Assembly (NCBI GenBank): GCA_002783405.1
Contig: PFGG01000035.1
Span: forward strand, 194,940-258,939
Length of the DNA: 64,000 bases
Direction of reading: 5' to 3'
Source: a bacterium (Candidatus Blackallbacteria) CG13_big_fil_rev_8_21_14_2_50_49_14
Lineage (GTDB): Bacteria; Cyanobacteriota; Sericytochromatia; UBA7694
Shown here: positions 2,499-48,668 of the stretch, piece by piece
How positions within the stretch are numbered: the first letter of the stretch is position 1
How the letters are laid out: each line of letters starts with the position of its first letter
Program-made: the position numbers and the translations under genes
The notes under the pieces: generated by a model
What the model was told of the DNA's origin: nothing
Databases searched by the model: none
What the model saw: only the letters and a program-made list of their open reading frames with translations

Positions 2499-3227
2499 TC
2501 AAAATGATTGAAGCAGACGGGGCAGGTCTGTCTTCAGCAGACGTTCGAGTTCATCAGAACGGGTACTGTCATAATAACCCCTGATCTGCAATTGAGAATC
2601 TACCAGCACAAACTTCTGGCTGTGCAAAAAGGGTTGTGCCTCGTCTTGCTTGGTTTGAGCACTGGCAGACTCATGATGTGCATGCGCGGCAGGAACAGGC
2701 TCGAGCGCCTGAACAGGCAAATGAAACTCTTTTTGCGCCAGTCGATAAAGGGCTTCACGGGGCCCTGTCAAAAACTTCCAGATTTTAGCATCAGCCTGAA
2801 ACCGGGCAGCATATTCTGTCAGTTTTTGAGGGGTATCTCTTTCAGGGTCTACACTAAAAGAAACCAAATGCACATGCTCTTTACCCGAGAGCGCCTGTTG
2901 AAGGCGGGCCATTTCAGCGGTCATGAGCGGACACTCTGTCGTACAACTGGTATAAATAAAATCGGCAATCCAAACCCGACCTTTTAAGGCCTCAGATCCC
3001 CAAGCTTGTCCATTGCGTTCCATAAATGAAAAGGAGTTCAGACTGCCATAGACAGGCAATTGTCCCGAAACACGCTGAGCCTCAACTCGAACAGCAGGCG
3101 GTTCTGCACTTTCAGCCAAATTTTGGGAGGGCTGACGAATCGCATAACAAGCAGAAGATACCAGAAAAGCAAGCAGAGCAAGCGCTATAAACTGAGAAAA
3201 AAAGGGGACTTCTTGATCCTTCTCCAT
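2499..3227 (-). CDS. SCO1/SenC family copper chaperone (thioredoxin-like), paralogue 1
   Basis: N-terminal membrane anchor and the CxxxC motif YTSCTTECPLM typical of Sco proteins. A His-rich insert (AHAHHESASAQ) precedes FLHSQKFVLVD. The gene sits next to ctaB and the oxidase genes. Confidence 0.8.
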   Translation of the reverse strand: MEKDQEVPFFSQFIALALLAFLVSSACYAIRQPSQNLAESAEPPAVRVEAQRVSGQLPVYGSLNSFSFMERNGQAWGSEALKGRVWIADFIYTSCTTECPLMTAEMARLQQALSGKEHVHLVSFSVDPERDTPQKLTEYAARFQADAKIWKFLTGPREALYRLAQKEFHLPVQALEPVPAAHAHHESASAQTKQDEAQPFLHSQKFVLVDSQLQIRGYYDSTRSDELERLLKTDLPRLLQSF

Positions 3228-3242: not shown

Positions 3243-4175
3243 TTAGGCTGGCAAACAATTCACAAACATCATAACAAAGAGCAGGCACAGGTAGAAAATT
3301 GAAAAGAAGAAAAGTTGGTAAGCCCGTTTGGAAGTGACGGGTTGAAAAATAAATTTGATTGTCAAACCCAAATAGGTAATTCCCAACAAAGCCGCAACCC
3401 CCATATAAATAGGCCCGGTCACGCCCAACCAAAACAGTGAAAGACTGGCAGGCAAAAGCAAAACCGTATAGATCAGCATTTGTCGTTTGGTTACGGCTTC
3501 ACCTTTGACCACAGGCAACATGGGAATATTCACACGGCGGTATTCTTCACTGCGAATCAGGGCAATCGCCCAAAAATGAGGCGGTTGCCAAAGATACATA
3601 ATAATAAACAAAGCAAGGGCTGTGGTATCAATGCGACCCGTTACGGCGGTTACCCCTAAAACCGTAGGCAGCGCCCCTGAAATCCCTCCAATAGAGGTAC
3701 AAAGCGGGCTCCAACGCTTAAGCCAAATGGTATAAATCACGACATAAAAGAAATTGGTAAACAAGGCCAATGCGGCCGTCAACATATTCACAGTCAGACT
3801 TAAAAAGACAAATGAACTGAGCCCCAAAAAAGTCCCCAACCAGAGAGCCACCTGAGGAGACAGCCGTCCTGTGGGCAAAGGTCGGTTGCGCGTACGCTGC
3901 ATATGTTGATCAATTTCACGGTCAATAAAATTATTAAAAGCACTGCTGGAGCCCGATGCCATCCCAACCCCCAAAAGGGTTGAAATGACCAGTAAAAGTG
4001 GAGGAACACCTCTGACTGCCAGCCACATTCCAGTAAAAGTAGTAATCAAAACTAAAAAAGTAATCCGTGGTTTGGTTAAATCATAGGCATCGCGCAGCCA
4101 TTGACGGATTTGAGTTTGCGGTGGAGCCAAAGATGCTGGCTCTGACGATAAGGTCATATTTCCCTGTTCAAGCAT
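3243..4175 (-). CDS. ctaB: Protoheme IX farnesyltransferase (heme O synthase)
   Basis: 310-aa polytopic UbiA-family protein. It lies between Sco and the cytochrome oxidase operon, the position typical for CtaB/CyoE. Confidence 0.8.
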   Translation of the reverse strand: MLEQGNMTLSSEPASLAPPQTQIRQWLRDAYDLTKPRITFLVLITTFTGMWLAVRGVPPLLLVISTLLGVGMASGSSSAFNNFIDREIDQHMQRTRNRPLPTGRLSPQVALWLGTFLGLSSFVFLSLTVNMLTAALALFTNFFYVVIYTIWLKRWSPLCTSIGGISGALPTVLGVTAVTGRIDTTALALFIIMYLWQPPHFWAIALIRSEEYRRVNIPMLPVVKGEAVTKRQMLIYTVLLLPASLSLFWLGVTGPIYMGVAALLGITYLGLTIKFIFQPVTSKRAYQLFFFSIFYLCLLFVMMFVNCLPA

Positions 4176-4741: not shown

Positions 4742-5821
4742 ATGAATTTCTTACCTTTGCCAGAAAATATCTCCACATTTGGAGTGGAGTTAGACTCGCT
4801 TGCCCACCTGATCACGATTATTACGATGACAGCTTTTGTAATAGCAGAAGGTATTTTGTTCTATTTCATTCTGCGTTTCCGTAAGAAAGCCAATCAGAAA
4901 GCCAGCTATATTCCAGGAAATAACTGGAAACAATTGCGTTGGATCTTTATCCCCTTGCTCGTTGTCGTAGGTTTCGATTTTCTTATTGATGAAAAGAATA
5001 CCCATGCCTGGACCATGATTAAACAGGAAATCCCTGAAAAAAAACACTATGAACTGGTTGAAATTACAGGTCAACAGTTTTCATGGCTTTTCCGTTATCC
5101 CGGCAAAGACGGTTTACTGGGTACCGTTGATGATTTCACCAGTACCAATGAATTGCATATCCCGGTCAATGAGACGATTGTCTTCTATCTAAAAGCCAAA
5201 GATGTTTTACACAGCTTCTACGTTCCCAATATGCGTTTTAAACAGGATGCTGTTCCAGGCCGAACCATCAAGGGTTGGTTTGATTCAACAAAAACAGGCA
5301 CCTTTGATATTGCCTGCGCTGAAATCTGCGGCGGAGGTCATAGCATCATGAAAGCCAGCCTGATCGTTCAAAACAAACAAGACTATCAAAATTGGATCGA
5401 ACAAGAATCGGCAAAAATCAAATTACCTGCCCCTGGAGATCTGAAAGCCCCCGTTGCTTCGCCGAGCCCGACAGCGGCCGAACATGGAACAGCCAGCTCC
5501 CATTCCACGGAAGCGGCCCAACCAGCAGCAAAAACGATCAGTGGAGAACAACTGCTCAAGGATAAAGGCTGCCTCGGCTGCCACACCTTAGACGGCTCTA
5601 AACTGGTAGGCCCAACCTATAAAGGTTTAGTCGGTCGAAAAGAAACAATCCTGACACAGGATAAGGAACATGAAATTACCGTCGATGAAGCCTATCTTCG
5701 CCGTTCTATTCAAGAACCCAATGCTGATATCGTCAAAGGCTATTCAGCTCTGATGCCTCAAACCCCACTGAGTGAAGAAGAGCTGAATACGATTATAAAC
5801 TACCTGAAAGAATTAAAATAA
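4742..5821 (+). CDS. coxB: Cytochrome c oxidase subunit II with a C-terminal cytochrome c domain (caa3-type)
   Basis: Two N-terminal TM helices. CuA centre motif H..CAEICGGGHSIM. C-terminal CxxCH (GCLGCHTL) with a downstream Met ligand region. Confidence 0.9.
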   Translation: MNFLPLPENISTFGVELDSLAHLITIITMTAFVIAEGILFYFILRFRKKANQKASYIPGNNWKQLRWIFIPLLVVVGFDFLIDEKNTHAWTMIKQEIPEKKHYELVEITGQQFSWLFRYPGKDGLLGTVDDFTSTNELHIPVNETIVFYLKAKDVLHSFYVPNMRFKQDAVPGRTIKGWFDSTKTGTFDIACAEICGGGHSIMKASLIVQNKQDYQNWIEQESAKIKLPAPGDLKAPVASPSPTAAEHGTASSHSTEAAQPAAKTISGEQLLKDKGCLGCHTLDGSKLVGPTYKGLVGRKETILTQDKEHEITVDEAYLRRSIQEPNADIVKGYSALMPQTPLSEEELNTIINYLKELK

Positions 5822-5838
5822 GGAGCAGCTGGTGAACT

Positions 5839-7554
5839 ATGGCCACTGAAGTAATCCAACACTCAGTATCTCCACATGAACATCATGAACTGAGTTTCTG
5901 GCGCAAATATATTTTTTCAACTGATCATAAAGTCATCGGCATGCAATACCTGCTCACAGGACTGCTGATGGTATTCTTGGGCGGATTTTTCGCCTATGTC
6001 TTTCGCATGCAATTGGCCTTTCCTGGTCAAGCCATTCCTGGCTTTGGAAAGTTAGACGCCAATACCTACAATATGCTGATTACCATGCACGGCACCATTA
6101 TGATCTTTTGGGTTGCCATGCCTGTTCTTGTTGCAGCTTTCGGAAACCTGCTGATTCCAACGATGATCGGCGCAGATGATATGGCGTTTCCAACCCTCAA
6201 CATGATTTCCTACTGGGTTTTCTTCATCAGTACAGTCGTGCTGATTCTATCGATGGTTTTACCTGGTCCCATGGCCACGGGGTGGACAGCCTATCCACCG
6301 CTTTCAGCCAATGCCTACCCCGCCAAAGTAGATTTTTGGGGAGGCATTGGTGGCAGTCTCTGGATTTTGGCTGTTGCGCTTGAGTTCATTGCCTTCCTGA
6401 TTGGGGGGATTAATTTCCTGGTAACAACCTTCAATATGCGGGCTCCAGGCATGAAACTAATGGATATGCCCATTACCGTCTGGATGATGGATATTGCAGT
6501 TCTGGTCTTCATGTTTTCAGTGGGCCCTCTGGTAGCGGGTGCTGTCATGTTGCTCTTTGACCGTGCTTTTGGAACAGGCTTCTATAACCCAGCGGCAGGG
6601 GGAGATCCGATTCTCTTCCAACACTTTTTCTGGTTCTTTGGGCATCCAGAAGTCTATGTCATTCTCTTACCAGGTTTGGGAATGGTGGCTGAGATACTGG
6701 CAACCATGTCGCGTAAACCTCTATTCGGCTATAAAGCCATTATCTATGCCTCAATCATTTCTGGCTTCCTTTCATTTATTGTTTGGGCTCACCACCAGTT
6801 CATTGCTGGTATCGATCCCCGCATGGCTGTCTTTTTCAGTATTACCACTATCATGATCTCAGTTCCCTTCGCTGTTTGGATGTTTGCCGCTATTGCAACC
6901 CTTTGGAAAGGATCGATCACCTTAAATACTCCCATGCTTTTCGCTTTGGGTTTTATTGGTGAGTTTTTGTTGGGCGGTGTAACAGGTATTTATCTGGGAG
7001 CCAGCGCCTTTGACATCTATGCACATGATAACTATTTTGTAGTTGCACATTTCCACTATGCCTTGATTCCCGATGTTTTCTTTGGTGGACTGGCTGCAAT
7101 TTATTTCTGGTATCCCAAATTCATCGGACGCATGTATAACGAAACGCTCGGTAAGATTCACTTTTGGCTTACAACGATTGGTTTCAATATGATCTTTCTG
7201 CCCTTATTTTACAATGGTTTCAAAGGTCAACACCGGCGTATTTTCGACTATTCAGCCTGGCCCAACCTCATGGCTCCAGACTTGGTTCAAAACCGTGTCA
7301 TTGCAACCATTGGGGTCATTATTTTAATTGCTGCTCAAATTCCATTTCTCATCAATATGATTCATAGTTTTCGTAAAGGCCCCAAAGCTGAACGAAATCC
7401 ATGGAAAGCCAACTCATTGGAATGGGCGACAGCATCCCCCCCTCCTCACGGTAATTTTGACACCTACCCCAATGTTTACCGTGGACCTTATGAATACAGC
7501 GTGCCTGGCCGTGAAGAAGATTTTTGGCCTCAGCACATTGCGAACGAAACATAG
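5839..7554 (+). CDS. ctaD: Cytochrome c oxidase subunit I
   Basis: 571 aa and 12 or more TM helices. Contains WFFGHPEVYVILLPGLGMV, HHQF and FVVAHFHY, the canonical heme-copper oxidase histidine ligands. Confidence 0.95.
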   Translation: MATEVIQHSVSPHEHHELSFWRKYIFSTDHKVIGMQYLLTGLLMVFLGGFFAYVFRMQLAFPGQAIPGFGKLDANTYNMLITMHGTIMIFWVAMPVLVAAFGNLLIPTMIGADDMAFPTLNMISYWVFFISTVVLILSMVLPGPMATGWTAYPPLSANAYPAKVDFWGGIGGSLWILAVALEFIAFLIGGINFLVTTFNMRAPGMKLMDMPITVWMMDIAVLVFMFSVGPLVAGAVMLLFDRAFGTGFYNPAAGGDPILFQHFFWFFGHPEVYVILLPGLGMVAEILATMSRKPLFGYKAIIYASIISGFLSFIVWAHHQFIAGIDPRMAVFFSITTIMISVPFAVWMFAAIATLWKGSITLNTPMLFALGFIGEFLLGGVTGIYLGASAFDIYAHDNYFVVAHFHYALIPDVFFGGLAAIYFWYPKFIGRMYNETLGKIHFWLTTIGFNMIFLPLFYNGFKGQHRRIFDYSAWPNLMAPDLVQNRVIATIGVIILIAAQIPFLINMIHSFRKGPKAERNPWKANSLEWATASPPPHGNFDTYPNVYRGPYEYSVPGREEDFWPQHIANET

Positions 7555-7568
7555 AGGAGATCAACTAT

Positions 7569-8183
7569 ATGTCAAGCACAGCTATTGCTCAGGAAGAGCA
7601 CGCTCAAGACACTTCTCCCCAAGCCAGAAGACGTGTTTTGATGGCAGATATGCCCAAAGGGCGATTGGCCATGTGGTGGCTCATCGCCTCTGAAGTCGTT
7701 ATCTTTGGAGGCTTAATTGCCACCTATATCATGTTCCGTTTACGCCATCCCGAATGGGGACACGCAGCCGCCCATACTTCCACACCCATGGGAGCATTGA
7801 ATACATTTTTTCTCCTGACCAGTAGTTTGACCATTGTATTGGCCCATGATGCCGCCAATCGCAAAGACCTCAAAGGAGCCGTGCGTAATATGCTGATTAC
7901 GCTTGGTTTTGGTTTGGGATTTTTGGTGGTCAAGTCTATTGAATACAGTACCGAAATCAGTCATGGCTTTACTCTCACGGCAGAACTTTTTTGGAGCTTT
8001 TATTTCCTAATGACAGGTTTACACGCACTCCACGTGATAGCAGGCATGACCACCATCTTCATTGTTATGCTGGGTGTGCGCAAAGGAAAAAACCTACAGA
8101 GAGTCGAGTTTGCTGGGCTCTATTGGCACTTGGTTGACTTGGTCTGGATTTTGCTTTTCCCTTTACTCTATATCGCGCATTAA
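7569..8183 (+). CDS. Cytochrome c oxidase subunit III
   Basis: GAGGAG Shine-Dalgarno 9 nt upstream of the ATG at 7569; the ORF-track start at 7524 overlaps ctaD. 5-TM protein ending ...GLYWHLVDLVWILLFPLLY, which is the subunit III signature. Confidence 0.85.
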   Translation: MSSTAIAQEEHAQDTSPQARRRVLMADMPKGRLAMWWLIASEVVIFGGLIATYIMFRLRHPEWGHAAAHTSTPMGALNTFFLLTSSLTIVLAHDAANRKDLKGAVRNMLITLGFGLGFLVVKSIEYSTEISHGFTLTAELFWSFYFLMTGLHALHVIAGMTTIFIVMLGVRKGKNLQRVEFAGLYWHLVDLVWILLFPLLYIAH

Positions 8184-8195
8184 GGAGGCTTCAAA

Positions 8196-8519
8196 ATGGC
8201 AATACACAACCCAACGGCCCATCATCCAGAAGAGGATTATCACGGCCATCCCAATTATTTTAAAACCTACTTTATCTTATTGACTATTTTTGGCCTCAGT
8301 TTGGCAGCAGGCTTTCTAGACAATATGCTCATGGCCATTCTGCTTATTTTTGGCATGGCCATAATAAAAATGATGTATGTTGCCAATAATTTCATGCATC
8401 TGCGTTTTGAGCCTGTTTCCGTTTGGTTTGCTGTTATTTTTGGTCTTGTTTGCTGTTTTATTTTCTATTTTGGTATTTACCCCGATATTATGATGGTACC
8501 TTTGGAAGTTGCTCGCTAA
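8196..8519 (+). CDS. Cytochrome c oxidase subunit IV (small caa3-type CoxD/CtaF-like membrane subunit)
   Basis: 107 aa with three hydrophobic helices. GGAGG Shine-Dalgarno upstream. The position directly after subunit III matches ctaF/coxD of caa3 operons. Confidence 0.6.
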   Translation: MAIHNPTAHHPEEDYHGHPNYFKTYFILLTIFGLSLAAGFLDNMLMAILLIFGMAIIKMMYVANNFMHLRFEPVSVWFAVIFGLVCCFIFYFGIYPDIMMVPLEVAR

Positions 8520-9137
8520 ATGCTCATCAATGAAAACATCCCCACTGCCCGAGCAATGCCGCGTCGTCCTTTGATCGCCAATAGCATTTTGGGTATGATC
8601 TTTTTTCTAGCCACAGAATTGATGTTGTTTGCTGCTTTTATCAGTGCCTATCTGGTGAATCGAACCAATGCCGGTTTTGCTTGGCCTCCTCCCGGTCAGC
8701 CCAGACTGCCCATCGAAGCCACCGCTTTGAACACTGCTTTTTTAATCGTAAGTGGAGTAAGCTTGCTCTGGGCTTGGTTCAGTTTAAGACAAAAAAAATC
8801 AGTCCAAAAATGGCTCTGGACAACCCTTTTAACAGGAAGTATTTTTGTCCTGCTTCAAGGCTTTGAATGGTTGCAATTGCTTCGTTTCGGACTCACAGTA
8901 TCTTCCAGTCTCTACGGTGCTTTTTTCTATCTGATCATTGGAGCACATGCACTCCATGCGATTGCAGGCTTGCTCTTTCTGTGGGCCAGTCTCAAGCAAT
9001 TTCAAAAAAAACCAGAATTGGTTAATCTGCCAAGACCCTTGCAATCTGCTCAATCACTTTTTCCTTCCGCAGCGCTTTTCTGGGGTTTTGTTGTTACTAT
9101 CTGGCCCGTAATTTATGGGTTTGTCTACCTGCTATGA
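8520..9137 (+). CDS. Extra subunit-III-like (NorE/CoxC-like) 4-5-TM membrane protein
   Basis: Its start overlaps the preceding stop. Contains ...GAFFYLIIGAHALHAIAGLLFLW..., which resembles the subunit III / NorE helix pair. It is shorter than a canonical subunit III. Confidence 0.5.
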   Translation: MLINENIPTARAMPRRPLIANSILGMIFFLATELMLFAAFISAYLVNRTNAGFAWPPPGQPRLPIEATALNTAFLIVSGVSLLWAWFSLRQKKSVQKWLWTTLLTGSIFVLLQGFEWLQLLRFGLTVSSSLYGAFFYLIIGAHALHAIAGLLFLWASLKQFQKKPELVNLPRPLQSAQSLFPSAALFWGFVVTIWPVIYGFVYLL

Positions 9138-9364
9138 ACACAAAAACTGCATTCTTCTGGATTTGCGCGATGCAATGGATTTTTCCCTGCTTTAGTTGGG
9201 GCTGTAATTGTATCTCTGACGGAGGAAGCAGTAAAAGTGCAGCCATGTATCAAGGCATTACCCTTTTACTGGCTGGGCTCCCGCTTTTATTTTGTTTGAG
9301 TTTATTCGGCCTTTATTACTGGCTCAAACGACAGGAACAATCCCCCGCATTGGAAACCCTGTGA
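9134..9364 (+). CDS. Small Cys-rich membrane protein (76 aa) of unknown function
   Basis: ATGA overlap with the upstream gene and GTGA overlap with the downstream Sco gene, implying translational coupling. N-terminal CAMQWIFPCFSWGCNC (four Cys) followed by one TM helix. Confidence 0.35.
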   Translation: MNTKTAFFWICAMQWIFPCFSWGCNCISDGGSSKSAAMYQGITLLLAGLPLLFCLSLFGLYYWLKRQEQSPALETL

Positions 9365-10047
9365 AACAGCCTCGTTCATTCATTCCATGGTTGCTGGGAT
9401 TCAGTCTCTTTCTCATTGGATTTCTTTTGACTTTTCTTTTCCAAAAACAATCCCCACAACTGGCCAGTCTACCTGTTTTAGGTCAGGTACATGATTTTCA
9501 TTTGCTGAACGAACAAGGGAAACCAATGACAGAGCAGGACCTCAAAGGTAAGGTTTGGGTTGCAGATTTCATTTTTTCAAGTTGCACTGAAGAATGCCCC
9601 CTCATGAATATCGAGATGTCTAAACTTCAAGAGGCTTTTAAGCAAAATGAGCAGGTCAAGCTACTCTCCTTCAGCGTTGATCCTGAAACAGATTCCCCAC
9701 AACGCCTGTTTGAATATGCCCAAAAATTTAAAGCAATACCCCAAAAATGGTCTTTCCTCACCGGAGATCGCGAGAGCTTAAGCCATTTGGCCCTTGAGGA
9801 TTTTCATATTTTGGGAGAGGCCTCAGTCAGCCATGCTCATTCTGAACATTCCCACAATAGGGAAGAACAATCCAATTCCCAAAACACCCATTCAGCATTG
9901 AGAAATCCAAGTATTTCCCAACCCTTTCTGCACAGCCAGCAATTTGTTCTTGTCGATCAAAAACTCCAGATTCGCGGGTATTACGACAGCAGAATGCCCA
10001 ATGATATCAACCGTCTGATTCAGACAGATCTGCCCTCCTTATTCTAA
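9361..10047 (+). CDS. SCO1/SenC family copper chaperone, paralogue 2
   Basis: The GTG at 9361 is overlapped by the stop of the small upstream ORF; the in-frame ATG at 9292 is the ORF-track alternative. N-terminal TM anchor and CxxxC (FSSCTEECPLM). A His-rich insert SHAHSEHSHNREE precedes FLHSQQFVLVD. Confidence 0.8.
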   Translation: MKQPRSFIPWLLGFSLFLIGFLLTFLFQKQSPQLASLPVLGQVHDFHLLNEQGKPMTEQDLKGKVWVADFIFSSCTEECPLMNIEMSKLQEAFKQNEQVKLLSFSVDPETDSPQRLFEYAQKFKAIPQKWSFLTGDRESLSHLALEDFHILGEASVSHAHSEHSHNREEQSNSQNTHSALRNPSISQPFLHSQQFVLVDQKLQIRGYYDSRMPNDINRLIQTDLPSLF

Positions 10048-10385: not shown

Positions 10386-11423
10386 GTGAAAGCACAATCG
10401 ACAAGCATTTTACGCCTCATCTTGATGATGGGGAGTTTCTTGCTGATGTATCCTTTGAATGCACTGGCGCTGATGGATGCCCAGTCAACTTTTGATGTCA
10501 AAGGAACCATTGGCCAGGAGCAACTGACTGTTTTCTGGTTCACGGTAGGAGTGTCTGCCTTCCTGCTGCTGACCGTAGGTGGCGTCTTTTTCTACGCCCT
10601 TTTCCGTTTTCGTGCCAAACCGGGCCAGGACTTTGCTGTCCCTGAACAAACCCATGGAAGCGCAAAAGTAGAAATTGCACTGATTATTGCCTCCTGTTTA
10701 TTACTGCTGGTAATTGCAGTGCCCAACGCCAAAGCGTTGTTTGTGATGGACAAGCCCCCCGAAGATAAACCGGCCATGAAGGTCATCGCGATCGGGCACC
10801 AATGGTGGTGGGAATTCCAATACCCTGACCTGGGGATTACAACAGCCAACGAATTGCATATTCCAACCAATACAGCTGTTAAAGTTGATATTAAAGCCGT
10901 AGATGTTATTCACAGCTTTTGGGTTCCACGTCTGGCGGGCAAAATGGATGCCGTTCCGGGTCAAATCAACCAGATGTGGTTAGATGCCAAAGAGCCCGGA
11001 AAATACAACGGACAATGTACTGAGTTTTGTGGAGACTCCCACGCTCAAATGCGTTTTTTGGTATTTGCACATGACAAGGCCGATTTTGACAAGTGGACAA
11101 AATCAGAAAAAGCCGATGCAGCAAAGCCTGATACCGTTGCACAGGTCAATGGCGAAAAAGTCTTTATGCAAGGCTGTAATTCCTGCCATGCCATTAAGGG
11201 AACCAACGCCATGGGCATTATCGGCCCCAACCTGACCCATTTTGGCAGTCGTACAAGCCTGGGTGCTGTTATGTATGAGAACAATACAGATAACCTGAAA
11301 AATTGGATCAAATTCCCTCAGCAAATGAAGCCTGGTAACCTAATGAAACTGGAACAGGCCAATATTGTACTGAGTGACAGAGATCTTGCAGATCTTGTAG
11401 CCTATCTGCAAAATCTGAAATAG
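10386..11423 (+). CDS. coxB: Cytochrome c oxidase subunit II with a C-terminal cytochrome c domain, second copy
   Basis: Signal/TM N-terminus. CuA motif H..CTEFCGDSHAQM. C-terminal CxxCH (CNSCHAIKG). It is a paralogue of the 4742..5821 gene. Confidence 0.9.
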   Translation: MKAQSTSILRLILMMGSFLLMYPLNALALMDAQSTFDVKGTIGQEQLTVFWFTVGVSAFLLLTVGGVFFYALFRFRAKPGQDFAVPEQTHGSAKVEIALIIASCLLLLVIAVPNAKALFVMDKPPEDKPAMKVIAIGHQWWWEFQYPDLGITTANELHIPTNTAVKVDIKAVDVIHSFWVPRLAGKMDAVPGQINQMWLDAKEPGKYNGQCTEFCGDSHAQMRFLVFAHDKADFDKWTKSEKADAAKPDTVAQVNGEKVFMQGCNSCHAIKGTNAMGIIGPNLTHFGSRTSLGAVMYENNTDNLKNWIKFPQQMKPGNLMKLEQANIVLSDRDLADLVAYLQNLK

Positions 11424-11458
11424 CCCATCGTGATTGAATATAGACAAGAGAGGAAAAT

Positions 11459-13378
11459 ATGGCAACAAGTACGGAAGTAATCAGTACAGGAGGTCATGCG
11501 CATACCCATTCCGATGCTCCGGAGATGGGCATGTTGGGGCCTCGCCCTTCTGCAAAGACGGGCGTCTGGAGCTGGTTAACGACGACCGACCATAAACGCA
11601 TTGGCGTCATGTATGGCATCAGCGCCCTGTTGTTTTTGGTTCTGGGTGGTCTTGAAGCTCTGATGGTCCGCATTCAGTTGGCCGTCCCCAATAATGACAT
11701 GTTGGTTGGCGATATGTTCAACCAAATGTTCACCATGCATGGCACAACCATGATCTTTTTGGCGGTCATGCCTTTGATCGCCGCCTTTTTTAATTTCGTA
11801 GTCCCCCTTCAAATTGGCGCACGTGACGTAGCCTTTCCCCGACTGAATGCTTTCAGTCTCTGGGTTTTTGTGGCTGGGGCGGTTTTAATCAATGTCAGTT
11901 GGTTTGCCGGTGGCGCTCCCAATGGTGCTTGGGTAGGTTATCCTCCCATTACAGGCCCTCAATACAATCCTGGCCATAACTCAGATTTCTGGGTCATGGG
12001 CTTGATGCTTTTAGGGGTAGCCTCTGTAGCCGCATCGCTTAACTTTTTCACCACGATTATCAATATGCGGGCTCCAGGCCTGACGCTGATGCGCATGCCT
12101 GTTTTTGTCTGGATGACCTTGGTGACCAATGTTTTGATCCTGCTGGCATTCCCTCCCATTACCATTGCCTTGGCGCAGTTGATGATGGATCGTATGTTTG
12201 GCGCCAATTTCTTCAATGTCGCCAAAGGTGGCATGCCCATTATGTGGCAACACTGGTTCTGGGTCTTTGGACACCCTGAAGTCTATATTCTGATTCTGCC
12301 TGGTATGGGAATTGTGTCTGAAATTCTTCCGACCTTTTCGCGCAAACCTTTGTTTGGTTATCCCCTGATTGTTTTCTCTGGTGCCTTTATCGGCTTTATG
12401 GGATTTACAGTCTGGAGCCACCATATGTTTACCTCTGGTATGGGCGTGATTGCCGTTTTGGCCTTCTCTGTCACTACCTCTATTATCGCGGTGCCAACCG
12501 GTGTCAAAATCTTTAACTGGATTGGTACCATGTGGGGCGGAAATCTACGCATGACCACCCCCATGCTCTATGCGCTTTCATTTATTGCCATGTTCACCGT
12601 GGGCGGCTTCAGCGGCATTATGCACTCCGCCGCCGCCGCAGATATGCAACAACACGATACCTATTTCATCGTTGCACATTTCCACTATGTCTTAATCGGT
12701 GGCGCCATTTCAGCTTTGTTTGGCGGTATCGCTTACTGGTTCCCCAAAATTACAGGCCGATTGATGGATGAGAAACTGGGTAAATTTGCCTTTTGGGTCT
12801 TCCTGATCGGTTTTAATATGACCTTTTTCCCAATGCATATCCTGGGCTTGAATGGAATGCCACGTCGTATTTACACCTACCATGCAGATATGGGCTGGAA
12901 TTTCTGGAACCTGTTCTGTACTGTGGGAGCCTTCGTACTGGCTTTCGGCATTCTCTTTTTCTTCATCAATATGGTTCACTCTTTCCGCAATGGAGAAATT
13001 GCAGGCGACGATCCCTGGGATGGCCGTACACTGGAATGGAGCATTCCGTCTCCCCCTCCCGTTTACAATTTTGCCGTAATTCCTGAAGTCACCCATTTGG
13101 ATGATTTTTGGCATAAAAAACAAACAGGCAAAGCCAATATTCCTTGGGATGGCAAGTTGATTCACATGCCCCTGTCTTCTTACTACCCTCTGATTGTGGG
13201 AGTTGGAATGTTCATCTTTGGCATGGGCATGATTTATATCAAAGACTCTGTCATGTTTGCTCTTCCCGTGGCATTAGGTGGTTTCGGTCTGATGACCTTT
13301 GCCATCTTCGGATGGGCACTTGAAGGACCCGGCGGTGAAATGCTGGACCCAACAAAAGAAAGTGGGGCACATAACTAA
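11459..13378 (+). CDS. ctaD: Cytochrome c oxidase subunit I, second copy, with a C-terminal extension carrying extra TM helices
   Basis: 639 aa. Contains WFWVFGHPEVYILILPGMGIV, HHMF and FIVAHFHY. About 70 extra C-terminal residues carry two hydrophobic segments. Confidence 0.95.
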   Translation: MATSTEVISTGGHAHTHSDAPEMGMLGPRPSAKTGVWSWLTTTDHKRIGVMYGISALLFLVLGGLEALMVRIQLAVPNNDMLVGDMFNQMFTMHGTTMIFLAVMPLIAAFFNFVVPLQIGARDVAFPRLNAFSLWVFVAGAVLINVSWFAGGAPNGAWVGYPPITGPQYNPGHNSDFWVMGLMLLGVASVAASLNFFTTIINMRAPGLTLMRMPVFVWMTLVTNVLILLAFPPITIALAQLMMDRMFGANFFNVAKGGMPIMWQHWFWVFGHPEVYILILPGMGIVSEILPTFSRKPLFGYPLIVFSGAFIGFMGFTVWSHHMFTSGMGVIAVLAFSVTTSIIAVPTGVKIFNWIGTMWGGNLRMTTPMLYALSFIAMFTVGGFSGIMHSAAAADMQQHDTYFIVAHFHYVLIGGAISALFGGIAYWFPKITGRLMDEKLGKFAFWVFLIGFNMTFFPMHILGLNGMPRRIYTYHADMGWNFWNLFCTVGAFVLAFGILFFFINMVHSFRNGEIAGDDPWDGRTLEWSIPSPPPVYNFAVIPEVTHLDDFWHKKQTGKANIPWDGKLIHMPLSSYYPLIVGVGMFIFGMGMIYIKDSVMFALPVALGGFGLMTFAIFGWALEGPGGEMLDPTKESGAHN

Positions 13379-14013
13379 TGAGCCACGCAGCAACTGTGGA
13401 TCAACAGCACCCCCATGCAGAACATCATCATGAGGAGCATTCCTATACGGGAATCCCCAATAAAAAAGTGATGATGTGGGCCTTTCTGGCCTCTGATTGC
13501 ATGTTTTTCGGTACGCTGATTTCTACCTATATCATTTACCATGGAAAGAGTCTCGCAGGTCCTTATCCTGCAGAGGTTCTGAATATCCCGGTGACGACAG
13601 CCAGTTCATTTGTGCTGCTGATGAGCAGTTTGCTCATGGCACTCAGTGTGGCAGCTATCAATCGCCAGGATATCACCAAATTCCGGCTGTGGATTTTCCT
13701 GACCGGTGTGTTTGGCGCGATCTTTCTTGGTTTCCAGTCCTATGAATTCACTGAATTCGTATCCAGAGGCGTCACACTACAGAACAATTTGTTTGGTTCA
13801 ACCTTCTATACCATGACTGGAACCCACGGTTTACACGTTGCCATTGGTGTTTTCTGGCTATTTAGCTGGTTCATCTACTCTTTCTTTGGCAATATGAAAG
13901 ACAAAGCCACCGATATTGAGGTTGCAGGCCTGTATTGGCACTTCGTTGATATTGTCTGGATTGTCATCTTTACCGTGATTTACCTTGTGGAATTTGTAGG
14001 AGTGACGAGCTAA
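13378..14013 (+). CDS. Cytochrome c oxidase subunit III, second copy
   Basis: ATGA overlap with ctaD2. 211 aa ending ...GLYWHFVDIVWIVIFTVIYL, the subunit III signature. Confidence 0.85.
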   Translation: MSHAATVDQQHPHAEHHHEEHSYTGIPNKKVMMWAFLASDCMFFGTLISTYIIYHGKSLAGPYPAEVLNIPVTTASSFVLLMSSLLMALSVAAINRQDITKFRLWIFLTGVFGAIFLGFQSYEFTEFVSRGVTLQNNLFGSTFYTMTGTHGLHVAIGVFWLFSWFIYSFFGNMKDKATDIEVAGLYWHFVDIVWIVIFTVIYLVEFVGVTS

Positions 14014-14657
14014 TGAGCAACGCACATGCAGAACACCCCGATCATGTCCCTGTCTATGTCAAACTGGCAGCCGCCTTGGGGATTGTAACCGCAGCAGAGG
14101 TTGGAATTCTCTACGTGGCTCTGCCTCACGCATTGATGTATGTGGGTCTTTATTTACTCGCTGCACTTAAATTCGGATTTGTTGTCGCAGTTTTTATGCA
14201 CCTCAAATACGATAATAAGTTGTTGACAGGTATTTTCTTCAGTGGATTCACTATCGCACTGGCAACCATGGTCGCGATGATTTCGCTGATCAACTACCAA
14301 CCCAGCAAAACTTCTATACATGTCAAAAATTCAAAAGAATTAGCGGCATTGAGTGCGTCTGGCAATGCAGAAAACGGGCCTGCTGTTTTTAAGGCAAAAG
14401 GCTGTACCGCTTGTCATTCCATCAGCAGTGTAGATGGTGCGATAGGTCAGGCCGGCCCCAAATTGGATGGCTTGGGCGAACGTGCAAAAACACGTGTCGC
14501 AGGTAAGGATGCAGTGGCTTATATTAAAGAATCCATTGAAAATCCCGCTGCCTTTGTTGTTGAAGGATTTCCGGCAGGTTTAATGCCAGCAAATCTGAAG
14601 CAAACAATGAGTGATCAGGAGTACAGCGATTTGGTCGCCTTCTTGGCCAAGTTATAA
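14013..14657 (+). CDS. Cytochrome c oxidase subunit IV (caa3 CoxD-like) fused to a C-terminal mono-heme cytochrome c domain
   Basis: ATGA overlap with subunit III. The N-terminal ~100 aa form 3 TM helices comparable to the 8196..8519 product. The C-terminal ~90 aa carry CTACH and are paralogous to the C-terminus of the 15623..16228 cytochrome c (shared ...FKAKGC..CH.IS....GA.G..GPKLDGLG....TRV.GKDAV.YIKESIENP..FVVEGFP...). Confidence 0.7.
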   Translation: MSNAHAEHPDHVPVYVKLAAALGIVTAAEVGILYVALPHALMYVGLYLLAALKFGFVVAVFMHLKYDNKLLTGIFFSGFTIALATMVAMISLINYQPSKTSIHVKNSKELAALSASGNAENGPAVFKAKGCTACHSISSVDGAIGQAGPKLDGLGERAKTRVAGKDAVAYIKESIENPAAFVVEGFPAGLMPANLKQTMSDQEYSDLVAFLAKL

Positions 14658-14660
14658 ACA

Positions 14661-15554
14661 ATGCTGAACTTTTTGTGTCCCCCGGCTCTGGCCCATGAAT
14701 TTGAAGCCATACCTTCTGTAGATATTCCTGCAAACGTATGGTGGACATGGCGACTGGAGTGGGGGGCACTTCTCATTTTGGCTTTGGCCGGTTGGGGCTA
14801 TTATCAGCTCTGGCAATACGCCAAAAACCAGTTAAAACTGGAAACGGCCCAAAAACTCGATAAGAAAAAAGCTGCTTATTTTTTCTCAGGTCTGGCCTTG
14901 ATCTATATAGCCATCGCCTCTCCAATCGACAGTGTCGGCGAGCAATATTTATTCAGTGTACATATGTTTCAACACAATCTCTTTATGTACCCTGTGGCCA
15001 CACTGCTTTTGATAGGCATTCCCGAGTGGATGCTTCAAATTGTGTTTAGATATTGGCCTTGGTCAGAAACAGTCCTTAAAAAATTAGCTCACCCCATACC
15101 CGCTTGTCTGCTTTTCAACCTGATTTTCGGGGTCTGGCATGTCCCCTATCTGTATGATTGGGCACTCAAAGACCGTATGGTGCATAACCTGGAGCATCTG
15201 ACTTTTGTTCTCAGTGCGCTCCTGATGTGGATGCCTGTGCGCAGTCCCCTTCTAAACTTGCGGCTAAGTCATGGGTTTCAAATGCTTTATATCGGTGCGC
15301 TTACTATCGCTCAAATTCCTGTTTTTGCCTTTGTCACTTTCTCACGAACCGTTCTTTACCAAACCTATGAGCTCGCCCCCCGCTTAACCACATTGACGGC
15401 ACGTGGAGACCAACAATTAGGGGGCGTACTCATGAAACTGACAGGAATGTTGGTTTTCAGCATTGCATTTATTCTGATCTTTATGGCCTGGTACCGCGCC
15501 GATAAAGATCAGGAAAACAATCCACAACTCAAGACCCGACCGCATTTCAATTGA
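14661..15554 (+). CDS. Cytochrome oxidase assembly factor, Bacillus CtaG-like (Caa3_CtaG family) polytopic membrane protein
   Basis: 297 aa with about 7 TM helices. Contains SVHMFQHNLFMYP, a His pair in a helix as in CtaG-type assembly factors. It lies inside the oxidase operon. The assignment was made by eye and was not verified by search. Confidence 0.55.
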   Translation: MLNFLCPPALAHEFEAIPSVDIPANVWWTWRLEWGALLILALAGWGYYQLWQYAKNQLKLETAQKLDKKKAAYFFSGLALIYIAIASPIDSVGEQYLFSVHMFQHNLFMYPVATLLLIGIPEWMLQIVFRYWPWSETVLKKLAHPIPACLLFNLIFGVWHVPYLYDWALKDRMVHNLEHLTFVLSALLMWMPVRSPLLNLRLSHGFQMLYIGALTIAQIPVFAFVTFSRTVLYQTYELAPRLTTLTARGDQQLGGVLMKLTGMLVFSIAFILIFMAWYRADKDQENNPQLKTRPHFN

Positions 15555-15622
15555 TTCAGGTACAATGAAAGCAAACAAATGATAAAACAAGATTTATCAA
15601 AATACGAGAAAGGTAACTCACT

Positions 15623-16228
15623 ATGAAACCCGCAGATCAAATGAAAGTTGTCGCTCTTTCATTTTTTTCATTGGCCATTTTGATCGCCATGATTACCACT
15701 GTTTCCATCATTACAAACCAGGCTGTTTCCGGCCACGGTGGAGAACATGGTACAGAAGCTCATCAAAGCAGCAACAATGAAAGCACAGCCGAACAAGCCG
15801 CCCCCAAAACTGAAGAACATGCAGCGCCTAAAACTGAAGAACATGCAACAGCCACAAAGGAACAAGCTGCCCCAAAGACTGAAGAGCACGCAGCGCCTAA
15901 AACTGAAGAACACAAAGAAACAAAACTTGCTGTTGCAGGAGATGCAAAAGCAGGGGCTGAAGTTTTCAAAGCTAAAACCTGCTCAACTTGCCACACGATC
16001 AGCTCATTGGCTGGTGCCACGGGAGCTGTAGGGCCTAAACTGGATGGTTTGGGCAAAACAGCTGCCACCCGTGTCACAGGCAAAGATGCTGTAACCTATA
16101 TTAAAGAATCCATTGAAAACCCAACTACTTTTGTCGTAGAAGGATTCCCTCCTGCCATGCCGGCTTTGAAAGCAACCATGAATGAGAAAGAATTTGAAGA
16201 TCTGGTTGCTTACCTCGTAAGCCTTTAA
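15623..16228 (+). CDS. Membrane-anchored mono-heme cytochrome c (class I) with a repetitive Ala/Pro/Lys/Glu linker
   Basis: N-terminal TM anchor, a low-complexity linker containing EQAAPKTEEHAAPKTEEH twice, and a C-terminal CSTCH haem-binding domain. Confidence 0.8.
   Translation: MKPADQMKVVALSFFSLAILIAMITTVSIITNQAVSGHGGEHGTEAHQSSNNESTAEQAAPKTEEHAAPKTEEHATATKEQAAPKTEEHAAPKTEEHKETKLAVAGDAKAGAEVFKAKTCSTCHTISSLAGATGAVGPKLDGLGKTAATRVTGKDAVTYIKESIENPTTFVVEGFPPAMPALKATMNEKEFEDLVAYLVSL
15791..15928 (+). repeat. In-frame tandem duplication (2 x 69 nt, with nested 24-nt sub-repeats) inside the cytochrome c linker
   Basis: The unit gaacaagc[c/t]gcccc...gaagaacatgca recurs at 15791 and 15860, encoding EQAAPKTEEHAAPKTEEH twice. 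It is not a CRISPR: there are no spacers and it is coding. Confidence 0.7.
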
Positions 16229-16707
16229 TGCGGTAAAAATTCACGCAATTTTTGTTGCGCCACACATTGATGAGCCACAACTTGAAGTTGTGGCTTATTT
16301 GTTTTGCCTTCAAAGTCAGCGATACATTTAAGCAGCGCAACAGACCAGGGAGAAAATTCCTTGGGGCTCCGAATCCGCTCAAGAAAAACACCCTGTTGGC
16401 GCATAGTGACCAAATACTCTTGGGTCACACTCTGACGCAACTGATAAGGGCTCTGTTGCCATCCCAACCAATCCATGTTTGCAAAGGAAACAGGCGCCTT
16501 GCTTACTTCAGGTACAGAAGGCTCCTCTGAGCGCCGCTCAGACACCTGAAGCGGAAAGATCCACTGGATCGAAACAGCCTGAAACCCCAAAACCAAGGAA
16601 AAGAAAAGGCCCTGAAGTCGTTTTTCAAAGGATTGGATTTGAAAGATACTCCACAAAAAAAGAAAAACTGCCAAACCACTTAAAAGGGCCGGCAGAAATT
16701 CAGACAT
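16225..16707 (-). CDS. Hypothetical membrane protein (160 aa)
   Basis: Two N-terminal hydrophobic helices and no recognisable motif. It lies downstream of the flagellar hook/rod-like gene on the same strand. Confidence 0.4.
   Translation of the reverse strand: MSEFLPALLSGLAVFLFLWSIFQIQSFEKRLQGLFFSLVLGFQAVSIQWIFPLQVSERRSEEPSVPEVSKAPVSFANMDWLGWQQSPYQLRQSVTQEYLVTMRQQGVFLERIRSPKEFSPWSVALLKCIADFEGKTNKPQLQVVAHQCVAQQKLREFLPH
16273..16305. terminator. Palindromic hairpin at the convergent junction of the cytochrome c gene and the minus-strand 16225..16707 gene
   Basis: AGCCACAACT tgaa AGTTGTGGCT is a perfect 10-bp stem, followed by TATTTGTTTT on the plus strand. It overlaps the 3' coding end of the minus-strand ORF, where it encodes PQLQVV. 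Confidence 0.4.
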
Positions 16708-16712
16708 GCTTT

Positions 16713-17711
16713 TTATCTAAAAACGCTGTTTAAATCATCCCAGGCAGACAAAAATGCTTTCATGGCTGCTGTTGTGGAGGTAAAGGTACGCTGTAACATC
16801 CCCAAAAGCCCCATGCTGCTGGGTAACTCAGTATTGGATTGCTCCAATGTTTGGCTTTCAATCGACCCCAAGCCCAACTGCTTATCACCAGGTGCACCCA
16901 CACCAGGAATACCACCAGGTGCAGCAGCGTCTGTTGCTTTATAAACAATGCCACCAAAACGAGAATTGGATAAGCCCTGAAGATTGGGAAATATTGCCAG
17001 AGCCAATTGATTGCCTTTACGCAAACCACGGGTTTCATTGATCAAAAACCCATCACGATCAAAATCTATCTGATCCCCATTGATTCCCAAATTATGTTGA
17101 AAAAACGTATTTCCACCCTGGGTATACTCTGTCGTATAATCGGAAACACGCAGAGAAGCCAATTCAGCAGTCACATTTGCCAAAGGTTCAGACAAAGCAG
17201 TAGAAATTTGGGCAGCTGTTTGGGCCCCTCCAGATTTTAATTGATCCAGGATTTTTTGCCCCAAAGCTGAAACCACAGGATTGATTTCAACTGTCGTTTT
17301 TTCCAAGGCTCCTGTTTGTGGATCAAAACTGGCAACACTTAAACCATCACTGTTGACCAGTGTTCCTGTATTATCAAAGTGAAACTCACCATTGCGGGTA
17401 TAATAAAACTCACCCTTCGCGTCAAAAAGGATAAAAAAACCACGACCATTGATCGCGAGATCAGTCGTAAAACCTGTTCTTTGAAGTGCACCCTGACCAA
17501 AATCAGATGTTGTGGCCCCCAAAGCAGTTCCTGCTCCTGAAGCCTGCCTTCCATTGCCAAAATCAATCACATCCAGTCCAGTTAAAGTACCACGAACTTC
17601 TTTCGCGCCGGGAATCTGGCTACGGGTCAAATTAGACGCTTCAATATTCATTAGCTGATTTGTGGCCCGTAAGGCTTCACGAATCCCTGTCATCCCACCA
17701 CTACTCGTCAT
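16713..17711 (-). CDS. Flagellar hook / basal-body rod family protein (FlgE/FlgF/FlgG family)
   Basis: Conserved N-terminal helix region (MTGIREALRATNQLMNIEASNLTRSQIPGAKE), the central GFFILFDAKGEFYYTRNGEFHFDNTGTLVNSDG motif, and the C-terminal LEQSNTELPSSMGLLGMLQRTF helix typical of this family. GGAGG Shine-Dalgarno 9 nt upstream. Confidence 0.8.
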   Translation of the reverse strand: MTSSGGMTGIREALRATNQLMNIEASNLTRSQIPGAKEVRGTLTGLDVIDFGNGRQASGAGTALGATTSDFGQGALQRTGFTTDLAINGRGFFILFDAKGEFYYTRNGEFHFDNTGTLVNSDGLSVASFDPQTGALEKTTVEINPVVSALGQKILDQLKSGGAQTAAQISTALSEPLANVTAELASLRVSDYTTEYTQGGNTFFQHNLGINGDQIDFDRDGFLINETRGLRKGNQLALAIFPNLQGLSNSRFGGIVYKATDAAAPGGIPGVGAPGDKQLGLGSIESQTLEQSNTELPSSMGLLGMLQRTFTSTTAAMKAFLSAWDDLNSVFR

Positions 17712-17910: not shown

Positions 17911-18225
17911 TTATTTTGAGAAAAGCCAATCCCAAAAATTTTGTTTCTTTTGCTTTTCTTTTTCTTTTTTCTTTTTCTTTTTTTCTTTTTTAAGCTGTTG
18001 TCGAGACTTTTCAAGTTCTGCATTTGGCAGAATGGTCGTCAAGGCATTGTATTGATCTTTCGCTGACAAGAGCATGCCATCTTTGCCATAAGGGGTTTGG
18101 TGAATAACCTGTTCCAGCGCTGGGGTCACTTTCAGATTGGTACTGTCTTTGGATACGGTCTGCCCCAGTTGCTTGGCAACTTCTGATTTCATGGGCCCAG
18201 AATCTGAAATTGGGATGATTGACAT
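17911..18225 (-). CDS. Hypothetical protein (104 aa) with a Lys-rich C-terminus
   Basis: No recognisable domain. The C-terminal KKEKKKKKKEKEKQKKQ is encoded by the (CTTTT)n-like tract. Followed by a terminator hairpin. Confidence 0.4.
   Translation of the reverse strand: MSIIPISDSGPMKSEVAKQLGQTVSKDSTNLKVTPALEQVIHQTPYGKDGMLLSAKDQYNALTTILPNAELEKSRQQLKKEKKKKKKEKEKQKKQNFWDWLFSK
17944..17991. repeat. Pyrimidine simple-sequence tract (CTTTT/CTTTTT-like repeats) inside the 3' end of the 104-aa gene
   Basis: The plus strand reads tttcttttgcttttctttttcttttttctttttctttttttctttttt. Confidence 0.7.
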
Positions 18226-23856: not shown

Positions 23857-24957
23857 ATGGCCGAAGATACAGCACAACTTTTAGCAAAGGGTCTGCAAGC
23901 TTTGGCTCAACGCGATCATCTTAACGCTTTTCATTATCTACAAGCCGCTGATTGGCAACGGTTTGGAAAACCATGGAATGCCTGTAACTCAGAAGAACGG
24001 GTTGCTTTTTTTGAAAGTCCACAATTTCCTCCCGAGGCAGTACCCCTGCACAAACTTCAACATGATCTTGAGCAAATCAAATATCTGCGCAAGAATCAAA
24101 AACTACCCGATGAATTTCAATCCGTCGAAAACGCCTTGGAGCAGGTATACGCCTCTCTCCTGCAGCGCTTTCAAAATGTCTCTGAAACAGAACTTTTATG
24201 GTTAAGCCCTCAAGAGCAGGAATTACTCGCCCCTTTCTGGAACAGAAATCTCTATACAGAACCCTTGCCTGAATCTCCTGAGCCACTCATCAACCCAGCA
24301 CTCGATACCGACAGAGTTTGCTGGAACTATCACCACAATCAACCCGGTTTGGCTTACTGTGATCAGATTTTGGCTGCTCCAGCGCTCACTCAAATCCGGG
24401 AATTTGTCTTGGCATCCACGCTCTGGCGGGATTACCAGCGAGGAGGTTATGTCGGGTCTTATCTTCCCAATGGCTTCTGTGCCCCCTTACTCCTACAACT
24501 GGCAGATCAGGTTCGCGCCGCTTTCTCACCGATTCTTCAAGACTTGCCCCTCAGTTTAATGTGGTCCTATAAATACAGTCAAAACTCGCCAGGTGTAGGC
24601 ATTCACGCTGATTCCGGCGGGCGCGTCAATGTCAATTTCTGGCTGACCCCTGACCATGCCAATTTGGAACCCGAAAAAGGGGGCTTGATTGTCTATGATG
24701 TGATGGCACCTTCAGACTGGGATCCGCGCAGATATCAGTTAGAAACCTTACTCAAGGGAAAACCCTGCAAAGCTTATCCTATTCCCTACCGTTTCAATCG
24801 TGCGCTTTTTTTTCACTCGGGCCTTTTTCATGCTTCGGATCAATTGCAATTCAAACCAGGTTACGAAAACCGTCGCATTAACCTGACTTTGCTTTTTGGC
24901 ATTCGCGATGCAGATTTAGAATCTCAATCCCAGTACAGTTGGAGACCCCTGATTTAA
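23857..24957 (+). CDS. Hypothetical protein, possibly a 2OG-Fe(II) oxygenase-superfamily (cupin-like) enzyme
   Basis: A possible HxD...H triad is seen in GIHADSGG...FHSGLFHAS. The N-terminal half is helical. The functional call is weak. Confidence 0.45.
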   Translation: MAEDTAQLLAKGLQALAQRDHLNAFHYLQAADWQRFGKPWNACNSEERVAFFESPQFPPEAVPLHKLQHDLEQIKYLRKNQKLPDEFQSVENALEQVYASLLQRFQNVSETELLWLSPQEQELLAPFWNRNLYTEPLPESPEPLINPALDTDRVCWNYHHNQPGLAYCDQILAAPALTQIREFVLASTLWRDYQRGGYVGSYLPNGFCAPLLLQLADQVRAAFSPILQDLPLSLMWSYKYSQNSPGVGIHADSGGRVNVNFWLTPDHANLEPEKGGLIVYDVMAPSDWDPRRYQLETLLKGKPCKAYPIPYRFNRALFFHSGLFHASDQLQFKPGYENRRINLTLLFGIRDADLESQSQYSWRPLI

Positions 24958-46232: not shown

Positions 46233-46302
46233 CAGTAATAATTCCTCAAAGCAAAACAGGTGGGATCTTGAATAAAGACCTCACCTGTTTAACAAAATTT
46301 AT

Positions 46303-47112: not shown

Positions 47113-47129
47113 GCTTCTTTACCTGCCTG

Positions 47130-48209: not shown

Positions 48210-48229
48210 GGTGTTATCCCCTTAAAAAT

Positions 48230-48565: not shown

Positions 48566-48584
48566 ATAATTAACCAGATTTCCG

Positions 48585-48603: not shown

Positions 48604-48668
48604 GGTCACAGTTTTTGGATTTGCCTATATCATTCAGTTCAATTTTTTTTTCATTGTACAATAAAAGT

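Follow-up and report, generated by a model that had tools for sequence, protein, structure and literature searches.

How do electrons reach a terminal oxidase whose operon encodes three separate cytochrome c domains, and are the carriers of such an enzyme free or built in? The question is raised by a stretch of 64,000 nucleotides (nt) of contig PFGG01000035.1 (hereafter, the window) from Candidatus Blackallbacteria, which belongs to the Sericytochromatia, the non-photosynthetic sister class of the oxygenic cyanobacteria. The window encodes two oxidases. The operon of the second one (oxidase 2, 10386..16228) includes a gene in which oxidase subunit IV is fused to a cytochrome c, and it ends with a gene for a second, paralogous cytochrome c that is predicted to hang from a membrane helix by a repeat-built linker. 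We propose, with a probability of roughly 60%, that oxidase 2 is a caa3-type A1 oxidase with built-in carriers: a haem c on subunit II, a second one on subunit IV, and a paralogue that resembles cytochrome c_y and is carried on the repeat-built tether. The composition of the oxidases of the Sericytochromatia is of interest because this class is central to the debate on when the cyanobacterial lineage gained aerobic respiration.

The oxidase 2 operon and its subunit IV-cytochrome c fusion

The genes of oxidase 2 lie on the forward strand in the order CoxB-c, CoxA, CoxC, CoxD-c, CtaG, and tethered cytochrome c, and they overlap or nearly abut. Subunit II (CoxB/CtaC, or CoxB2; 10386..11423) matches the Pfam families COX2 and Cytochrom_C and the NCBIfam model for CoxB (TIGR02866, score of 213.9 against a cut-off of 147.7); it has a CuA site (CTEFCGDSHAQM) and a C-terminal c domain with the haem motif CNSCH. 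Subunit I (CoxA/CtaD, or CoxA2; 11459..13378), with 639 amino acids (aa), matches Pfam COX1 (E = 1.9e-157) and TIGR02891 (699.6 against 670.75), and its translation contains WVFGHPEVYI, that is, the GHPEVY motif with the helix-VI glutamate that is typical of A1-type enzymes. These are followed by a short subunit III (CoxC/CtaE; 13378..14013, 211 aa, Pfam COX3), the fusion protein (14013..14657, 214 aa), a Caa3_CtaG-type oxidase assembly factor (14661..15554; PF09678, E = 6.9e-48), and the cytochrome c_y-like protein (15623..16228, 201 aa). Direct reading of the sequence shows that the stop codon of CoxC overlaps the start codon of the fusion gene (TAATG) and that the start codon of CtaG is 3 nt past the stop codon of the fusion gene. 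A terminator-like hairpin (16269..16299, forward strand), with a 14-bp stem and then a T-rich tail, appears to close the operon, as judged by a consensus scan only.

Several of these features place oxidase 2 among the caa3 enzymes. The caa3 oxidases of Bacillus subtilis (CtaCDEF and CtaG), Thermus thermophilus (2YEV), and Rhodothermus marinus are of the A family and carry a c domain on subunit II, as oxidase 2 does. Oxidase 2 also shares with them a long subunit I (639 aa), a short subunit III of the type with five transmembrane (TM) helices (211 aa), a COX4_pro protein, and Caa3_CtaG. CuA ligands and a fused c domain are found on subunit II, and GHPEVY is found on subunit I. Oxidase 2 is probably an A1-type caa3 cytochrome c oxidase with a Bacillus-like ctaCDEFG cluster. 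We know of no characterised caa3 enzyme that has a c domain on subunit IV. A further difference from caa3 is the third c domain, which is encoded at the end of the oxidase 2 operon. The order of the preceding genes is the same as in the Bacillus operon, ctaC-D-E-F-G (PMC4013037).

A first-pass annotation of this DNA had proposed that oxidase 2 carries up to three c-type haems, and three separate CxxCH domains are indeed encoded: CNSCH in subunit II, CTACH in subunit IV, and CSTCH in the tethered protein. That the three haems work as one electron-entry module is plausible.

The same annotation had read the product of 14013..14657 as a CoxD-like N-terminus with three TM helices followed by a CTACH cytochrome c domain, and our analysis bears this out. 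The open reading frame (ORF) is uninterrupted, so that no frameshift separates the two domains, and both of them exceed the Pfam gathering cut-offs (COX4_pro, PF03626, at residues 19-85, with 36.1 bits against 28.9; Cytochrom_C at residues 119-214, with 37 bits against 21.3). An AlphaFold2 model that was built from an alignment of 14 fusions, with a mean predicted local distance difference test score (pLDDT) of 81.5, has helices at residues 12-32, 39-65, and 69-94 (pLDDT of about 73-92), in agreement with three hydropathy peaks. These are followed by a low-confidence stretch at about 95-106 and by the c domain at 107-214 (pLDDT of about 90). The protein can thus be divided into a TM domain (aa 1-94, nt 14013-14294), a short conserved linker (aa 95-106, nt 14295-14330), and a c domain (aa 107-214, nt 14331-14654). 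In the c domain, CTACH occupies residues 131-135 (nt 14403-14417), and Met191 (nt 14583-14585) is the candidate axial ligand; C131, C134, H135, and M191 are all invariant in the alignment of the 14 fusions.

The N-terminal domain is that of a subunit IV. When a PDB search was run with the N-terminal 103 residues of the fusion as a single sequence, there was no match, and a profile was required. A profile of this domain (A3), which was built from fused and unfused relatives, matches subunit IV (CyoD) of the bo3 oxidase of Escherichia coli (6WTI_D) with E = 6e-4, and the alignment (positions 2-90 against 3-93) covers all three helices. The fusion also has the TM2 motif K-F-x-x-V-x-x-x-F-M-H-L, which is conserved in COX4_pro, and a basic, K/R-bearing loop (HLKYDNK) between TM2 and TM3. 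So, it resembles other COX4_pro proteins (CyoD, QoxD, CtaF) in family score, in its three TM helices, in its TM2 motif, and in the position of its gene directly after subunit III, but it is twice as long. Unlike E. coli CyoD and unlike the unfused subunit IV of oxidase 1, it carries a covalently attached second c domain. BLASTP finds no detectable similarity between the two subunit IV proteins of the window (E = 5), so the fusion does not seem to be a recent copy of the subunit IV of oxidase 1. The topology of CyoD is established: the N-terminus is inside and the C-terminus is outside. Given this topology, the three TM helices, and the HLKYDNK loop, the c domain of the fusion should be periplasmic, where haem attachment occurs.

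The two domains are joined in different ways in different lineages. In the Sericytochromatia, the connector is short (about 12-25 residues), partly helical, and conserved (YQPSKTSIxVKDSKELAAL). Other lineages have a long connector with many Pro, Thr, and Ala residues.

The fusion was at first suspected to be non-standard. It turns out to be no oddity of this genome. A search of 5.8 billion proteins found about 47 clusters at 90% identity that combine COX4_pro with a cytochrome c, and those that are named come from metagenome-assembled genomes (MAGs) of Sericytochromatia or "Melainabacteria." A profile search of 1.84 billion representatives at 50% identity found at least 32 clusters that match profile positions of about 3-214 in a single stretch, and 10 of the 10 distant clusters that were tested pass both of the Pfam cut-offs. 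Among the GTDB species representatives, full-length matches are present in 11 MAGs of Sericytochromatia and 7 of Dehalococcoidia (Chloroflexota). We compared gene order by running tblastn with six proteins of the window against the relatives' loci. The order CoxB-CoxA-CoxC-fusion-CtaG-tethered c is kept in 11/11 loci of Sericytochromatia (L004 ends within the last gene). CoxB-CoxA-CoxC-fusion is kept in 6/7 loci of Dehalococcoidia (L016 starts inside CoxA), with no adjacent tethered cytochrome. The fusion lies directly after subunit III in all 18 of these loci. Thus, the fusion is a conserved architecture in at least two phyla and not an accident of this genome.

The family also has some variants. 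Two of the distant metagenomic proteins that were tested (P0111, 384 aa, and P0133, 355 aa) have two cytochrome c domains after COX4_pro, and in another (P0173, 379 aa), an inserted pair of IPT/TIG domains separates the subunit IV part from the c domain. The Dehalococcoidia MAGs (L015-L021) have caa3 operons of the aerobic type with the fusion, and one of them (L021) has an additional small cytochrome c ORF between CoxB and CoxA.

How did the two phyla come to share this operon? Just upstream of the operon, the related loci L005 and L007 encode a second subunit I that resembles that of oxidase 1. By tblastn, CoxA2 shares about 56% identity with subunit I of the Dehalococcoidia and only about 40% with this second subunit I. 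Together with the common fusion, these values hint at the lateral acquisition of the whole module, and they are consistent with a transfer between Chloroflexota and Sericytochromatia.

Full-text literature searches found no description or analysis of a subunit IV-cytochrome c fusion. The 214-aa protein is 100% identical to COW36_00790, a hypothetical protein of CG17_big_fil_post_rev (Candidatus Blackallbacteria), and it is in GenBank as PIQ26724.1, PIW19407.1, and PIW48989.1. The first of these accessions is listed, uncommented, in an appendix (Table A3) of Schwartz et al. (2022; PMC8756737) among ORFs that combine a "COX IV" domain with one homologous to the "C1" cytochrome domain of Chloroflexi NirS. 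Matheus Carnevali et al. (2019) typed the oxidases of Sericytochromatia as A1, A2, or C and did not mention the fusion, and Degli Esposti (2014) described COX1-COX4 and COX1-COX3 fusions but not COX4-cytochrome c. The fusion operon is a previously uncharacterised variation on the known designs of caa3 oxidases and anchored cytochromes c.

The predicted tethered cytochrome and its repeat

The last gene of the operon encodes a protein with three parts: an N-terminal helix (aa 3-36, nt 15629-15730), a disordered His/Glu-rich linker (aa 39-100, nt 15737-15922), and a c domain (aa 101-201, nt 15923-16225) with CSTCH at residues 120-124 (nt 15980-15994). An AlphaFold2 prediction from 21 homologues gives a pLDDT of 78-90 for the helix, below 50 for residues 39-100, and about 90 for the c domain. 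M179 is invariant in the alignment of these homologues, and we infer that M179 here and M191 in the fusion are the haem ligands.

With its predicted TM helix, about 62-72 residues of disordered linker, and some 100 residues of c domain, the protein resembles in layout the membrane-anchored cytochromes c_y (Rhodobacter capsulatus), c552 (Paracoccus denitrificans), and c550 (B. subtilis). In R. capsulatus c_y, the three parts have 30, 69, and 100 residues, and the length of the linker affects the range of partners; an engineered fusion, c1-CcoP-c_y, has also proved to be active (PMC7876108). Unlike in these proteins, the linker here is made of octapeptide repeats and is rich in His and acidic residues, and the gene is inside an oxidase operon. 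The c domain itself is no more than a distant relative of c_y (E = 6e-5 to 6XKW_Y).

Its closest kin in the operon is the c domain of the fusion. The suggestion that these two domains are paralogous is well supported: they are 64% identical over 102 residues (E = 7e-43), while the c domains of the fusion and of subunit II are 33% identical. Both match the Cytochrom_C family model and are predicted to fold as class I cytochromes c. In a neighbour-joining tree of c domains, the fusion and tethered domains of Sericytochromatia form one clade that is nested among other fusions, which hints at a duplication within the Sericytochromatia, although the tree lacks support values and is built on a short domain. 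With NCBIfam models, the c domains gave only sub-threshold matches to SoxX, c550, and c6. We do not take these matches as a sign of a role in sulfur oxidation.

The linker had been described at first as containing a perfect-looking 2 x 69-nt duplication. There is indeed an in-frame repeat of two 69-nt blocks (15791..15928, forward strand, with the blocks at 15791-15859 and 15860-15928), as found by Tandem Repeats Finder (TRF) and by comparing units, and each block encodes an identical 18-aa core, EQAAPKTEEHAAPKTEEH. At the DNA level, however, the blocks agree at only 53 of 69 positions (77%) and the 54-nt cores at 48 of 54, and the basic unit is 24 nt: TRF reports an array at 15791-15912 with a period of 24 and 5.2 copies. 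There are four 24-nt units that encode AAPKTEEH, starting at 15797, 15821, 15866, and 15890 and arranged as two plus two. They differ pairwise at 1-6 of 24 positions (75-96% identity, mean 83%), so that the description of the 24-nt units as nearly identical in DNA fits units 2 and 4 only.

All six variable sites of the repeat are third-codon positions, and every difference is synonymous. If mutations were uniform, the chance that all six differences between the pair of cores would be synonymous is about 9e-5. The first-pass annotation took the repeat to be a recent expansion, and this did not hold up. Among close relatives (different species, with a fusion protein and a CoxB that share about 83-86% identity with those of the window), the units of the window are the most diverged (mean identity of 83%, versus 96-97% in L004 and L006-L008). 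Because its units are the most diverged and its variable sites are all third-codon positions, the repeat seems to be an older array, and its pattern points to purifying selection on the peptide.

The number of units does vary between lineages. The window has four AAPKTEEH units, while there are five in L006 and P0054, seven in L007 and P0049, nine in L008 and P0050, and about 12 in P0053. L004 has eight, including a leading TKTEEH unit, and its contig ends inside the gene. Within the population, no length variation was seen, as the same 201-aa tethered protein is found on nine contigs, under three GenBank accessions, and in at least two differently tagged assemblies. So, the predicted length polymorphism is present between related genomes, with four to about 12 units, but was not seen within the population. 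We also considered a contingency-type locus with a variable-number tandem repeat and rejected it here, as the units are only 75-96% identical, there is a single 201-aa form, and the number of units differs only between species.

Across the family, the composition of the tether is conserved but its sequence is not. The linkers of 30 homologues have 37-115 residues and are always rich in His and acidic residues, with 4-15 His per linker. Most homologues have an HGG(G/E)HG-type motif directly after the membrane helix, and there are lineage-specific repeats (AAPKTEEH, DAKPADH, SKPAEH, and KMAEHGTEG) with a His about every eight residues. Peptides rich in His and Gly bind Cu(II) or other metals. 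It is conceivable, and in our view doubtful, that the His- and acid-rich tether binds Cu(II) or another metal and thereby buffers or delivers copper for CuA and CuB, or that its reach depends on metal or on pH. If this were true, then the metal-binding tether and the haem of subunit IV would form a self-contained, metal-responsive electron-entry module with three haems.

Electron entry into oxidase 2

If the carriers of oxidase 2 are built in rather than free, then they would be arranged as follows. One haem c would be the one that all caa3 enzymes carry on subunit II, beside CuA. A second would be on the periplasmic C-terminus of the three-helix subunit IV. As the connector is short, conserved, and partly helical, the enzyme probably keeps this c domain in a set position on its outer face, with a stoichiometry of 1:1. 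The third would be on a paralogue of the c_y design, in which some 62 disordered residues tether a c domain of about 100 residues to a conserved N-terminal membrane helix. Electrons would then flow from a quinol-oxidising complex to the tethered cytochrome c, on to the haem c of subunit IV and/or subunit II, and through CuA and haem a to haem a3-CuB. Shifts in the number of AAPKTEEH units by slippage between lineages would alter the reach of the carrier.

Other enzymes also tie the carrier to a membrane subunit so that no free cytochrome c is needed: CcoP in cbb3 oxidases, QcrC in Actinobacteria, and the engineered c1-CcoP-c_y protein. In contrast to CcoP and QcrC, the anchor in the fusion is of the COX4_pro family and the oxidase is of the A family, with CuA.

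As the source is a MAG, one might suspect an artefact of assembly or gene calling: a stop codon could have been lost, or a frameshift introduced, where ctaF meets a cytochrome c gene, or the repeat could have been collapsed. In two relatives there are signs of such errors, likely from assembly or sequencing: both CoxB and the fusion gene seem to be frameshifted in L014 (at about 4900 and about 8090), and L005 has a run of N in its AAPKTEEH repeat (at about 9810-9910). However, 10 contigs and the three accessions given above all have the identical 214-aa protein, and the same architecture recurs in the many clusters from genomes of two phyla. Also, the four repeat units of the window can be told apart by their synonymous differences, which makes a collapse unlikely. 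We rejected this explanation and consider it extremely improbable. The product of 15623..16228 could also be secreted and cleaved, which would leave a cytochrome c that is soluble in the periplasm and has a long N-terminal tail rich in His and Glu. A small-x-small motif does follow directly after the hydrophobic segment: it reads AVS|G in this protein, AVA|S in many of its homologues, and MVA|S or SVA|G in others. This possible signal-peptidase site would allow the protein to be released. Yet the hydrophobic stretch is about 22 residues long and lies within the one continuous helix that is predicted at residues 3-36, and the overall layout equals that of cytochrome c_y. Furthermore, across the 21 homologues, whose overall identity is only 47-74%, the N-terminal MKPADQxKV and two residues of the TM helix, S28 and T31, vary little or not at all. 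Such conservation would be unusual for a cleaved signal peptide and argues for a retained anchor, so we think that cleavage is quite unlikely.

A different question is what the haem of subunit IV would do. Instead of relaying electrons to CuA, it could be a docking or entry point that wires the oxidase to a bc/b6f-type complex or to alternative complex III in an obligate supercomplex. Its role would then be like that of the dihaem QcrC in the actinobacterial CIII2CIV2 supercomplex, and other acceptors or donors would be left to the tethered cytochrome. The short, conserved, partly helical linker suggests that the c domain is fixed in place, perhaps at the edge of the enzyme, where subunit IV is located, and this would suit such a role. 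The dihaem proteins P0111 and P0133 and the TIG-inserted P0173 look like extended wires, and the Dehalococcoidia have the fusion without the adjacent tethered cytochrome. On the other hand, no complex III genes adjoin the operon here, and the usual entry haem of a caa3 enzyme is already present on subunit II. We view the supercomplex as possible but rather unlikely.

Some points also weigh against the built-in carriers that we favour. Besides the possible signal-peptidase site, the haem of subunit IV may sit too far from CuA or from the c domain of subunit II for direct transfer. No genes for complex III, alternative complex III, or another quinol:cytochrome c oxidoreductase were found in the window. 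Most of the repeat counts were taken from metagenomes assembled from short reads, and arrays of this kind can be collapsed or broken in such assemblies (in addition to the run of N in L005, P0048 is partial). Finally, the source organism is uncultured.

If oxidase 2 does have built-in carriers, then it would extend, and not overturn, the current understanding of caa3 and c_y. Subunit IV is considered an "accessory" subunit with a poorly understood function, and here it would be the anchor for an extra haem c, which would give it a concrete, testable role. The operon would be a natural counterpart of the engineered fusions of carriers and oxidases, with a c_y-like carrier encoded alongside. And the repeat-built tether, with its range of 37-115 residues in the family, would be a natural experiment on how the length and composition of a linker tune a tethered carrier.

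Oxidase 1 and the rest of the window

Directly upstream of oxidase 2 is the cluster for oxidase 1 (4742..9137), a second caa3-type enzyme of the A family, with the order CoxB-c, CoxA, COX3, COX4_pro, COX3. Its two COX3 paralogues (7524-8183 and 8520-9137) flank an unfused COX4_pro gene (8196-8519, 107 aa); the duplication of subunit III is unusual. It is followed by a 76-aa ORF with no Pfam match (9134-9364) and by a homologue of the copper chaperone SCO1/SenC (9292-10047, forward strand). A second SCO1/SenC homologue (2499-3227) and a UbiA-family gene that resembles haem O synthase (3243-4175) are on the reverse strand. In the two SCO1 homologues, which flank the oxidase genes, the thioredoxin-like core is followed by a short insert rich in His (AAHAHHESASAQ and SHAHSEHSHNREEQ), and these inserts echo the His-rich N-termini of CoxC2 and of the fusion, as well as the linker of the tethered cytochrome.

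Just downstream of the oxidase 2 operon, a 160-aa ORF without a Pfam match (16225-16707, reverse strand) overlaps the terminator-like hairpin and may not be a real gene. Three longer ORFs also lack Pfam matches (28926-31859, reverse strand, 977 aa; 23857-24957, forward strand, 366 aa; and 37968-38990, reverse strand, 340 aa). Flagellar and motility genes are found at 16713-17711 and 44227-48790 and encode a FlgE/F/G-like rod or hook protein, FapA, MotB, MotA, and FlbD. Finally, a 104-aa ORF (17911-18225, reverse strand) has a low-complexity run of Lys and Glu, KKEKKKKKKEKEKQKK, that is encoded by a purine-rich tract.

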